Assembly: GCA_052055015.1 (NCBI GenBank)
Contig: JBQJIT010000077.1
Direction: 5' to 3' (one strand)
DNA length: 34,102 bases
DNA from: Malassezia furfur
Taxonomy: Eukaryota
Positions 23,378 to 25,850 of this stretch are shown piece by piece (positions within the stretch are counted from its first letter, which is position 1; every line of letters starts with the position of its first letter). A program made the position numbers and the translations under genes. The notes beneath the pieces were generated by a model, which worked only from the letters and a program-made list of their open reading frames with translations, searched no databases and was not told the origin of the DNA.

Positions 23378-25850
23378 ATGGTCTATTCGGCTCCGGTCCC
23401 CGCATACACCACCGGTGTCAAGAACAGCTTTGCGTACGAGTCGGCACTACACCGGTGGCCTGCAATCCTTACGCAGGCCATCGATGCAATGTACCGCCAC
23501 TGCCACACGCTCTCACAGCAGTCCCAGCAGGCGGCCGTCGACGAGGGCAAGGCGATTATCGAGCGTATCGCCAAGCTCAAGTACGACATCACGCACGACC
23601 GCCCGCTCGAGACCCTCGGCGTCACCAAGGACAATGCCGCGCACCTCGCCGGCGGCTACCGCGCGCCGCCTACGGACGCCTACGACGCATGGATTCAAGA
23701 GGCGCACCCAACCTGGTTCAACGCCGTGTGGTACGTCGGACCCACTTACCCAGGTTGTACGCCGAGTGCTACCTGTACCGTCGTCTGCGCCACCTGTTCG
23801 AGACGTCGACCCACTGGCAAGCGTATGACCCCTTCTTCCAGACCAAGTCGGACACCTTCCTCGCCTCGGAAGCGGGCATCCACGCCTGTGCCAAGCTCAT
23901 CCAGGAGCTCTTGGAGAAGAACGCGACCCACGCCGTGCACGACCCAGCGACCAACGTGCTTTTTGACGAGCTCGTGTCGTCGTCGCTGTGGGGCAACGCC
24001 ACAGACCTCAGCTTGCTCACCAACCTGAACTACGCCGACCTGCAGAAGCTGCAGGCCACCAGCGCCGAGCACCGCAAGGAGAAGCAGCAGTTTGTGTTGG
24101 TCAACCATCTGGCGAATGCATGGGACGCTCTGCGCAGCATGGACCACGGCCGCGTGGATATCGTGCTCGACAATGCAGGCTTTGAGCTCGTGACTGACCT
24201 CGTGCTGGCCGACTGGTTCCTGACGCTTCGCGGCACGATTCCGCGCGCGTCCGAGGAACGTGCAGCGGACGTACGTGGTCGCATCGATGCAGTGCGTGCG
24301 CGCATCGACCGCGCGGCGCAGCAAGCATCGCGCCCCCCGCCCGGCCTGTTTGCTGTGTCCAAGCTGCAGCCGCCGTCGGATGTGATGGCCGCCTTTGACG
24401 CCGGGCAGCGCCATTTCGGCGAGAACTACGCTCAGGAGCTTGTTGAAAAGGCGCATGTCCTCCCACAGTCGATCAAATGGCACCTGATCGGCGGGCTGCA
24501 GAGCAACAAGGCCAAGATCCTCGCACGTACGTCTCCCTGCTTACCCAGCCATCCCGAATATGTACGCTGTCGAGTCGATCGACTCGGAGAAGCTCGCAAC
24601 CAGTCTCGAAAAGGCGCTTGCCAAGCCGGAGAACGAGCTTCGCCGGACCTACCCTCTGCATGTCTATCTCCAGGTAAACACCAGCAGCGAAGAGGGCAAG
24701 AGCGGCGTCGCACCGATGACCACCGCCTGGGACGGTAGCGCTTCGGAGCCGCCGCTCCTGGCGCTCGCCAAGCACATCCTCCTACGCTGCCCGCACCTGC
24801 GTCTCGCGGGCCTGATGACCATCGGCGCGCTGGCCAACAGCCAGCAGTCGCGTGATGCGCACCACAACCCCGATTTTGAGGCGCTGGTATCGACGCGCAC
24901 CCACCTACTGCATGCCCTCCGTACGGACGGCGCGCTCCGAGAGCAGGTGCACAACACGGCGTACTGGTCGCCAGACGGGTCGTCGGACGACGTCTACGCT
25001 GCGCTGTGGGGCGACGCTCCTGATGCACTCGAGCTGAGCATGGGCATGTCGGCGGACCTGGAAACGGCGGTGGCCTATGGTAGTGGGCATGTGCGCATCG
25101 GCAGCGACTGTTTTGGCCCACGCTCGAGCAACCAGGACGCGGCCAAGGTGCGGGAGCAGGAGATTCAACGCTTTGCTAATGTTCCGCTCGTGCAGGAGGT
25201 GGTATTCCACACCAAAAACCTGCCGTGGTTCGTGAGCGACACGTGTGTGCCCGACGTATGGTACACGATCGAGCAGCTGTGCACGACAACGATGAAGGAT
25301 CCTGCACCGGTGCAGGCGATGGCGAAGCGCTGGAAGACGCACTTTGACGAAAAGCGCTTCCGGCTGCAGATGCCGCACGATGCGCCGCTTGGCGCGGATG
25401 CAGGCGAGCTGTCCGACTTTTGGACGATGCCGTACGGCTACGGCGCTATGGTGCGTAGTGGGAGATTGCTGACCTCAGCCGGAACTGGCGCCCGCACTGC
25501 TTACGCAGTTGGCCTCCAGCGGCCTCGTGATTTTCAAAGGTGCGTGGGGGATCGGCTGACCCAGGCGATCTGGTACGTCCCATGCACGCTCATGTAGAAC
25601 TACCGCAAGCTCACGCAGGACGCCGAATGGCCGGCTGACACGCCGTTTGACACGGCGCTCGGACCGTTGGCTGGCCGCTTTCCGATTCTCGCGCTGCGCA
25701 CCTGCAAGGCCGAGGTGTGCGTTGGCCTGCAAGCCGGCCAAGCCGCGACACTGGATCGGCAGGACCCCAAGTGGAGAACCAATGGACACTGGGCCGGTAC
25801 GTCGCTTGCGGGGTGCTAATGCAGTGATGCAATTCGCTGCGCGTTCCTAA
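23378..25850 (+). CDS. DUF89/ARMT1-family damage-control phosphatase (YMR027W-like) with an internally inserted YggS/PLPBP (YBL036C-like) domain. Exons 23378-23730, 23754-24526, 24549-25450, 25479-25539, 25565-25572, 25598-25796, 25825-25850; 773 aa
   Basis: DUF89 motifs: [47 protein letters not shown], then FH.K..PWFVSD, FW, IFKGDLNYRKL, LRTCKA. YggS motifs between them: AVSK, G.RHFGENY.QEL..K, WH.IG.LQSNK, LQVNTS.E..KSG, GLMTIG, LSMGMS.D...A...GS..VRIGS..FG.R. Exon lengths sum to 2322 nt. Confidence 0.9.
24241..25180 (+). other. Inserted YggS/PLPBP alanine-racemase-like TIM-barrel domain (approximate boundaries); predicted PLP-binding Lys codon at 24361-24363
   Basis: All canonical YggS motifs are present in order. 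Both junctions with DUF89 sequence lie inside continuous open frame. Confidence 0.9.

Follow-up and report, generated by a model that had tools for sequence, protein, structure and literature searches.

What does it mean for a gene that encodes a metabolite phosphatase to carry, in the middle of its catalytic domain, the whole of a second protein whose own role is still debated? The question is raised by a 34,102-nucleotide (nt) stretch of contig JBQJIT010000077.1 from the Malassezia furfur assembly GCA_052055015.1, hereafter the window, in which a plus-strand gene (23378..25850) encodes a predicted protein of 773 amino acids (aa) with a DUF89/ARMT1 phosphatase domain interrupted by an entire barrel of the YggS/PLPBP family. 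The YggS/PLPBP proteins are conserved in all domains of life, and loss of PLPBP results in vitamin B6-dependent epilepsy in humans. Abstracts in the literature still present the molecular function of PLPBP as unsettled, and a 2022 review (PMC9605639) describes the members of the family as single-domain proteins. The barrel in the window departs from the family as described there, in that it is embedded in a DUF89 domain and has neither a free N-terminus nor a free C-terminus; the single-domain build is a descriptive feature, however, and homology does not hinge on it.

Domain architecture and junctions

Scans of the exon translations with the PF01937 (ARMT1-like) profile gave matches for all four that were examined, with 118.3 bits for exon 2, 34.3 for exon 6, 25.3 for exon 3 and 24.1, just under the cut-off of 25, for exon 1; jointly these pieces span positions 4-309 of the 311 in the profile. 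The match in exon 2 ends at profile position 185 and that in exon 3 resumes at 188, leaving about two positions between the two halves, and the intervening sequence is matched by the YggS profiles. TIGR00044 aligns over positions 4-90 with the last part of exon 2 and continues from 93 at the start of exon 3, with 67.3 and 88.2 bits on these intron-split pieces (a simple sum of 155, the cut-off for a whole protein being 106.25), and PF01168 reaches 24.3 bits on exon 3 against a cut-off of 24.1. The E-values of these profile matches (5e-34, 1e-18 and 6e-25) exclude a chance resemblance.

Three segments are delimited in this manner: an N-terminal DUF89/ARMT1 part (23378..24228, residues 1-276, profile positions 4-50 and 52-185), the inserted YggS/PLPBP barrel (24229..25180, residues 277-586, including the 22-nt intron at 24527-24548) and a C-terminal DUF89/ARMT1 part (25181..25850, residues 587-773, profile positions 188-235 and 272-309). 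The insertion site is a helix-to-strand loop 19 residues past the nucleophilic aspartate of the phosphatase. The junction from DUF89 to YggS, at about 24229, lies in exon 2 and the return junction, at about 25180, in exon 3; since each is contained within a single exon, neither depends on splice prediction. An alignment (A2) in which all 45 stand-alone DUF89 rows and all 12 stand-alone YggS rows are in register gives the same picture: the stand-alone DUF89 rows end at residue 278 of the 790-aa ortholog from M. vespertilionis (P0005) and restart at residue 590, which makes residues 279-589 of that protein the insert. Methionines occur in the window protein at positions 1, 38, 247, 329 and onward, with none between 247 and 329; the stretch from the DUF89 helix up to the Schiff-base Lys321 is thus free of them, and there is no ATG at which translation of a complete YggS protein could begin.

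These results bear out the initial annotation of the locus, which had proposed a 773-residue spliced protein with junctions near 24240 and 25180, a domain insertion as opposed to an end-to-end fusion of two families that are normally separate genes, both sets of motifs intact, and no separate ATG for the YggS part. The split ARMT1-like domain around a PF01168 barrel that it expected from profile searches is what the exon-wise scans recovered, with halves of a single PF01937 profile flanking the TIGR00044/PF01168 barrel; the six-intron gene model independently arrives at the same length, and every motif that had been listed could be located in the protein.

An arrangement of this kind might be produced by misassembly or by a gene model that merges two neighboring genes, and merged models do occur in the vicinity: in one Malassezia record (P0014) the gene is joined to the adjacent INO1, and certain long YggS models from elsewhere run together with Cofilin, MCM_bind or MTHFR domains. 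Against such an artefact stand the position of both junctions within uninterrupted exons and the fact that 20 independent protein records, together with a metagenome contig that is likewise independent, show the same arrangement. Furthermore, halves of one DUF89 profile, broken between positions 185 and 188, lie on either side of YggS, and therefore these are not two adjacent genes. We regard the probability of an artefact as negligible.

Gene structure

The gene consists of seven exons (23378-23730, 23754-24526, 24549-25450, 25479-25539, 25565-25572, 25598-25796 and 25825-25850, the fifth being only 8 nt long), and its pieces are spread over four reading frames of the plus strand. Removal of six GT..AG introns leaves an open coding sequence of 2322 nt that ends with the TAA at 25848-25850; the product is collinear with seven orthologs, and in their alignment the translation is unbroken at each splice junction. 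All six introns are 22-28 nt in size. Intron 1 (23731-23753, 23 nt, GTACGT...CAG) and intron 2 (24527-24548, within the YggS part) yield on splicing stretches of 15 and 18 residues, respectively, that are collinear with the orthologs. Introns 3-6 (25451-25478, 25540-25564, 25573-25597 and 25797-25824) alternate with exons 4, 5 and 6 across 25451..25824, and their removal gives the likewise collinear joins YGAM-PELAP, VIFK-GDL-NYRKL and GHWA-VMQF, hyphens marking the splice points. Intron positions vary between species: introns 1 and 2 of the window are absent from the ortholog on the metagenome contig (L001:1-2153, plus strand), which has instead an intron between FVS and D (L001:1540-1565) without counterpart in the window, and six gene models (P0007, P0008, P0009, P0012, P0017 and P0019) either have or read through the same FVS-D intron. 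The positions of introns are hence not informative with respect to the origin of the fusion.

The ends of the insert raise the possibility that one gene supplies two products, a plain DUF89 protein and/or a free YggS protein, through alternative splicing or through proteolysis of the linkers. A hypothetical large intron of 925 nt on the plus strand (24271..25195) would begin with the consensus-like 5' site GTACGT (24271-24276) after Asp290, would contain the branch-like CTAAT at 25176-25180 and would end with the CAG at 25195; these signals are in phase 0, and excision would remove residues 291-591 in frame and leave DUF89 open. Nevertheless, the codons that make up GTACGT (within Asp-Val-Arg) are kept in just one, P0001 from M. 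brasiliensis, of the eight other full or near-full orthologs, the DNA of L001 has no GT-consensus at that position, and 925 nt is far from the 22-28 nt of the six real introns. With this stretch removed, the remaining loop would be 16 residues long, compared with about 6 in other Ustilaginomycotina, and no in-frame methionine precedes Lys321 within the insert, so that a free and complete YggS would not result. The linkers, moreover, are modeled as ordered, with mean predicted local distance difference test (pLDDT) values of 95-98 per block. We rejected a conserved intron at 24271-25195, whose signals we judge to be due to chance given the unconserved 5' codons and the discrepant size, and consider two products from this gene very unlikely.

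Phyletic distribution

In a word-indexed protein search with exon 2, confined to proteins of 451-2000 aa and evaluated on the best 120 matches listed, the top 20 align over 84-100% of exon 2, i.e. extend past the junction, and for 19 of them the precomputed domains include PF01937 as well as PF01168. Among the fusion records that carry a species name, that of M. brasiliensis shows 94% identity, and the window thus comes from a Malassezia close to this species; the others are from M. psittaci, M. vespertilionis, M. cuniculi and M. sp. CBS 17886. The remaining 100 are DUF89 alone, at 58-76% coverage, from Sporisorium, Ustilago, Melanopsichium, Kalmanozyma, Thecaphora, Tilletiaria and the like, and among the 120 matches the YggS insert was not seen in any other Ustilaginomycotina. 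The suggestion that the same insertion be sought in other Malassezia and other Ustilaginomycotina is thus borne out for the former, with five named species, and not for the latter, in which DUF89 stands by itself. At the insertion point these other Ustilaginomycotina have a loop of 6 residues (LLT-TPHVDQ-VVFH), as against LT-LRG...(YggS)...PLV-EVVFH in Malassezia.

Wider searches returned the same group of proteins. An exhaustive HMMER search of 1.84 billion representatives found both parts spanned only by P0007, P0020 and fragments, the score falling from 590 to 391 bits after the fusion matches, where DUF89-only proteins follow. The ESM Atlas has two clusters with both families, both from Basidiomycota. 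In a metagenome scan that recovered 80 YggS loci, DUF89 accompanied YggS in L001 only, which is the same fusion; no subfamily-III DUF89 was detected near any of the 79 stand-alone YggS loci, the flanks covered being at most 3 kb per side and the hidden Markov model (HMM) one that may miss distant prokaryotic DUF89 proteins. No Malassezia-named stand-alone YggS appeared among the best 120 matches shorter than 434 aa, a list in which P0121 represents a piece of the gene in the window itself. Similarly, no Malassezia-named stand-alone DUF89 appeared among the best 120 of 141-450 aa, where the top three are fusion fragments, or among the best 120 of 451-2000 aa.

One apparent fusion outside Malassezia, P0244 (labeled Cichorium endivia, 74% coverage), was rejected as it is an Ustilago-like DUF89 protein whose model loses the frame past ADWLLTTP; the sequence is probably fungal and lies within a plant assembly. 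The long fungal YggS models P0387, P0399, P0401, P0420 and P0393 were likewise rejected as fusions with DUF89, for this domain is absent from them and the barrel is accompanied by Cofilin_ADF, MCM_bind or MTHFR; they may result from the merging of neighboring genes or be real end-to-end fusions. We also observed that the DUF89 proteins P0022, P0023, P0028, P0039, P0087 and P0095 (562-712 aa; Sporisorium, Ustilago, Thecaphora, Tilletiaria, Sympodiomycopsis and Tilletia) contain an extended low-complexity stretch, rich in Ser, Arg and Gly, that is inserted after the '...SLLEPSFF' helix, downstream of and distinct from the YggS site.

Provenance of the inserted barrel

Among the best 120 matches listed, the closest stand-alone relatives of the barrel are fungal YggS proteins with 46-52% identity. 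A quick IQ-TREE phylogeny, with support from the Shimodaira-Hasegawa-like approximate likelihood ratio test (SH-aLRT) only, was computed from 41 rows, namely the barrels of nine fusions plus 32 rows chosen among the 120 stand-alone matches (named ones spanning phyla and some others, 88 being left out). In it these nine barrels are monophyletic (SH-aLRT 93) and sister to the stand-alone proteins P0122 and P0128 (96), and all of these lie inside a clade with the named basidiomycete rows Lenzites, Trametes and Tulasnella (94). A bacterial origin of the barrel was rejected in view of its fungal nearest stand-alone relatives and its position among the basidiomycete rows.

The fusion barrel and its stand-alone relatives have in common the start of the N-terminal helix ('P.AS.ER') and the helix of the C-terminal tail. 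As both ends are shared, nearly all of a native YggS gene, lacking just its start, was inserted in a single event. The comparison of sequences thus indicates that the barrel is native to the basidiomycetes and that there was one insertion, before the sampled Malassezia split.

Conservation of the two active sites

The host domain is like those of DUF89 subfamily III (Schizosaccharomyces pombe Duf8901/SPAC806.04c and Duf89/SPCC1393.13, yeast YMR027W and human ARMT1), as seen from the 118 bits of PF01937 on exon 2, from phmmer matches against the PDB to S. pombe 7t7k (E 1.4e-35 for exon 2 and 4e-80 for P0005), and from the presence of the catalytic set of Asp-Asn, the WGN..D lid, FVSD, KGD and the lysine of RTCK. 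In the N-terminal part this set comprises the lid motif LWGNATD (Asn199 at 23995-23997, Asp202 at 24004-24006) and VLDNAGFE with the nucleophile Asp257 (24169-24171) and Asn258 (24172-24174). In the C-terminal part it comprises WFVSD, which follows the strand VVFHTKN (Asp606, 25238-25240), KGDLNYRKL (Asp698, 25567-25569, in the 8-nt exon 5) and LRTCK (Lys736, 25706-25708). Asp257 and Asn258 align with D248 and N249 of Duf8901, and Asn199 and Asp202 with N192 and D195, the index of the 7t7k chain being one higher than the published numbering; by motif position FVSD, KGD and RTCK would correspond to D286, D363 and K401. In a study of Duf8901 (PMC9062747), D248 is the aspartyl-phosphate nucleophile and alanine mutants of D248, N249, K401, D286 and D195 are inactive.

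The barrel, in turn, is like PLPBP/YggS/YBL036C/PLPHP (COG0325, TIGR00044) throughout, with the N-terminal helix, the AVSK lysine (Lys321, 24361-24363), HFGENY (from 24412), GGLQSNK (LQSNK from 24496), the NTS of QVNTS (from 24671), MTIG (in GLMTIG, from 24809), SMGMS (in LSMGMS, from 25034) and VRIG..FG.R (VRIGS, from 25091). It is unlike yeast YBL036C in having a loop of about 40 residues before LSMGMS, which it shares with the stand-alone P0122 and P0128.

In the set of eight full-length fusion sequences (the window and seven orthologs), mean pairwise identity is 60.8% for YggS, and 51.5% and 57.6% for the two DUF89 halves. Invariant in all eight are YggS motifs amounting to 35 residues together with VRIG.DCFG.R, including HFGENY, WH..GGLQSNK, NTS, KSG, LM.IG, SMGMS and VRIG, as well as DUF89 motifs amounting to 31 residues together with LRTCK, with FVSD, KGD and RTCK among the conserved elements; the linker residues LRG and PLV are also invariant. 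The AVSK lysine occupies the same column as the lysine of all 12 stand-alone YggS proteins, most YggS motif residues occupy columns with complete or at least 90% conservation across 51 stand-alone YggS proteins (alignment A4), and the FVSD, KGD and RTCK motifs are themselves invariant or at least 90% conserved across 52 stand-alone DUF89 proteins (alignment A3). WGN..D and VLDN.GFE are retained in 19 of the 20 fusion records, the exception being P0020.

A lineage with a degenerate phosphatase site

P0020, a database protein, and the metagenome contig L001 represent one lineage, which is sister to P0016 inside Malassezia (SH-aLRT 96); on L001 an inositol-3-phosphate synthase lies downstream of the fusion, as in the window. 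This lineage does not carry the DUF89 catalytic-residue set: VLDN has become VLGN, with loss of the nucleophile, GFE has become GAE, TD has become SA, FVSD has become FVNN and FKGD has become FQGD, and the lid lacks 26 residues after WGNATD. The changes at the DUF89 site are identical in the two independent records, and all YggS motifs are intact. Identity to the window protein is 57.5% in YggS for this lineage versus 57.3% for its sister P0016, whereas it is 40.0 versus 48.3% in the N-terminal DUF89 part and 58.4 versus 62.4% in the C-terminal part. When identity is measured to the other four reference orthologs instead, the deficit in the N-terminal part is 1.4-14 points, and the difference in the C-terminal part -5.6 to +2.4 points. 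With the nucleophile and the metal-site aspartate of DUF89 lost and YggS and the fold kept, phosphatase chemistry would be dispensable in this lineage, whose DUF89 domain looks, on these sequence changes, like a pseudo-phosphatase scaffold. Such decay of chemistry with retention of the fold is to be expected if the YggS guest is the constrained function and the DUF89 host its scaffold.

Predicted structure

The AlphaFold2 model that we used is that of P0005, computed from alignment A2, a protein that is 61-69% identical to the window protein by region. Its mean pLDDT is 93.1 and its predicted template modeling score (pTM) 0.92; the 10-residue blocks across both linkers have values of 95-98, and the only regions of lower confidence are the DUF89 lid (201-230) and the extra YggS loop (511-530). 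A pTM of 0.92 over a chain of 790 residues denotes high model confidence in how the two domains are placed relative to each other. In Foldseek comparisons, with template modeling (TM) scores normalised to target length, the DUF89 fold matches 7u1x_B (Duf8901) at 0.91 and human 6umq at 0.89 through matches that span the insert, S. pombe DUF89 structures as a group at 0.87-0.91 and yeast YMR027W at 0.82-0.84. The fold-type III barrel matches yeast YBL036C (1ct5/1b54) at 0.88-0.89 and Escherichia coli 1w8g/7ubq at 0.81-0.82. Among the solved structures searched with Foldseek no chain has both folds, and the window protein differs from the solved DUF89 chains in that a foreign domain of 310 aa breaks its Rossmann-like core.

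According to the secondary structure of the P0005 model, the insert lies between the helix 263-275 and the strand 593-599; the nucleophilic aspartate closes the strand 252-257, and the aspartate of FVSD lies beyond strand 593-599. The helix-to-strand loops of a parallel sheet are opposite the catalytic ends of the strands, and this placement would put the barrel on the far side of the phosphatase. In a complex prediction for a stand-alone DUF89 protein and a stand-alone YggS protein from Gigaspora margarita (P0044 and P0169), which made no use of alignments, the score was 0.00 in two runs, which is evidence neither way.

Functional interpretation

The reading that we prefer is that of a bifunctional polypeptide with two modules acting side by side. 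As a whole statement we give it a probability of about one half; its parts concerning anatomy and evolution are much firmer. A complete native basidiomycete YggS barrel (about 310 aa, with its N-terminal and C-terminal tail helices and without a start methionine) was inserted once, in the ancestor of Malassezia, into the loop between the helix that follows VLDNAGFE and the strand VVFHTKN of a subfamily-III DUF89/ARMT1 phosphatase. As suggested by their conserved residues, the product would combine a metal-dependent phosphatase acting via an aspartyl-phosphate intermediate with a PLP-binding module of B6 homeostasis, a reading favored because both modules retain their functional residues in most species. 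The two modules would be made in a 1:1 ratio and rigidly packed, and would act without handing substrate over from one site to the other. YggS would be the more constrained part, with the DUF89 body kept at least as a scaffold for its folding, and one lineage would have let the phosphatase chemistry decay while retaining the fold and the barrel.

A different possibility is that the two activities are functionally coupled, the barrel either capturing B6 phosphates (PLP, pyridoxine 5'-phosphate (PNP), pyridoxamine 5'-phosphate (PMP) or damaged forms) for hydrolysis by DUF89 or sensing PLP and tuning the phosphatase; by extension, the fusion might point to a partnership in which the separate proteins of other organisms also engage. 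The presence of the fusion in every sampled Malassezia record, the invariance of its linkers, the rigid two-domain body that is predicted for P0005 and the better conservation of YggS than of its host are all in line with coupling, as is the literature's view of the PLPBP role as still open, at least in what its abstracts convey. E. coli YggS has, by the titles of the structure entries, been solved with PLP and with PNP. The DUF89 proteins are phosphatases of varied phosphometabolites, and this family includes PANK4, where a single chain likewise unites DUF89 with a domain from a cofactor pathway. In PANK4 a pantothenate-kinase-like domain is fused end to end with a DUF89 domain of another subfamily, unlike in the window protein, whose partner is inserted inside the phosphatase and whose link to a substrate is hypothetical. 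As reported in PMC8669784, family members including PANK4 act on 4'-phosphopantetheine derivatives, which the DUF89 part of PANK4 hydrolyses; in the same paper, however, the yeast and human enzymes of subfamily III have fructose-1-phosphate as the best substrate known. Further points that speak against coupling are the L001/P0020 lineage, where YggS is kept without the nucleophilic and metal-site aspartates and has no need of DUF89 catalysis, and the insertion in a loop which, judging from the secondary structure of P0005, is on the face opposite the catalytic strand ends. A subfamily-III DUF89 was near only one of the 80 metagenome YggS loci, this one being the fusion itself, within the flanks and HMM sensitivity noted above. 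An inserted domain is also hard to unfuse, hence its retention is weak evidence. We hold coupling to be a possible alternative, less likely than two modules that act side by side. Less probable again, and in our estimation unlikely, is the broader proposition that subfamily-III DUF89 enzymes act on B6 phosphates which PLPBP/YggS presents or senses, in cis in Malassezia and in trans elsewhere.

Several considerations weigh against the bifunctional, side-by-side reading itself. The retention across the genus, the invariant linkers and the rigid packing would also fit a coupled enzyme; the pTM is the model's own confidence and no measurement; and the suspension of the barrel from the face opposite the catalytic site, which the model suggests, is a matter of topology. 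That the protein is made as one chain and stays whole is deduced from open frames and conservation. The fused gene is, as far as seen, the sole copy of both families in the genus, and this appearance derives from top-120 lists of annotated proteins; the L001 lineage might have a second, intact DUF89 gene elsewhere in its genome. Finally, PANK4 offers by analogy a DUF89 precedent for an informative fusion, in which the partner domain hints at the substrate, and the crystallisation of E. coli YggS with PNP as well as PLP is known from structure entry titles.

Genomic neighborhood

Downstream of the fused gene lies the inositol-3-phosphate synthase gene INO1 (26140-27819, plus strand). The record P0014 (M. 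sp. CBS 17886, 1309 aa), an NCBI model that joins the two, looks like an annotation artefact. The upstream neighbor is divergent and encodes the ribosome-maturation protein SBDS/SDO1 (22390-23013, minus strand), with three SBDS Pfam domains and an N-terminus that is probably in another exon. Farther off in the window, two adjacent open reading frames on the plus strand (11993-13471 and 13826-14953) encode members of the SLAC1/tellurite-resistance-dicarboxylate transporter family (PF03595, E 1e-81 and 2e-50) and are apparent tandem paralogs.

Implications

The protein is a combination of two known families. Fusion sequences are already in public databases, automatically annotated and with both Pfam domains precomputed, and the impression that the DUF89-YggS architecture is undescribed agrees with our full-text literature searches, which found no description of it in print, subscription-only papers lying outside their reach. 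The fusion may mislead automatic annotation, as its members are labeled, for instance, 'hypothetical protein' or 'Pyridoxal phosphate homeostasis protein', and one of them is merged with INO1. Whatever its function, it is a clean example of the insertion of a whole gene into a loop of a catalytic domain, in which the fold of the DUF89 host would have become entrenched because its loss would cost the YggS guest.

A genus in which YggS is seen only as an insert in a phosphatase is a natural handle on the function of PLPBP, and it offers the specific hypothesis that the protein acts on B6 phosphate esters and that Lys321 and Asp257 influence one another. For this hypothesis the L001 lineage, with its degraded phosphatase site and its intact YggS, is a natural control. 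If the partnership is true, the long-sought role of PLPBP would be that of a substrate-handling or regulatory partner of a damage-control phosphatase.

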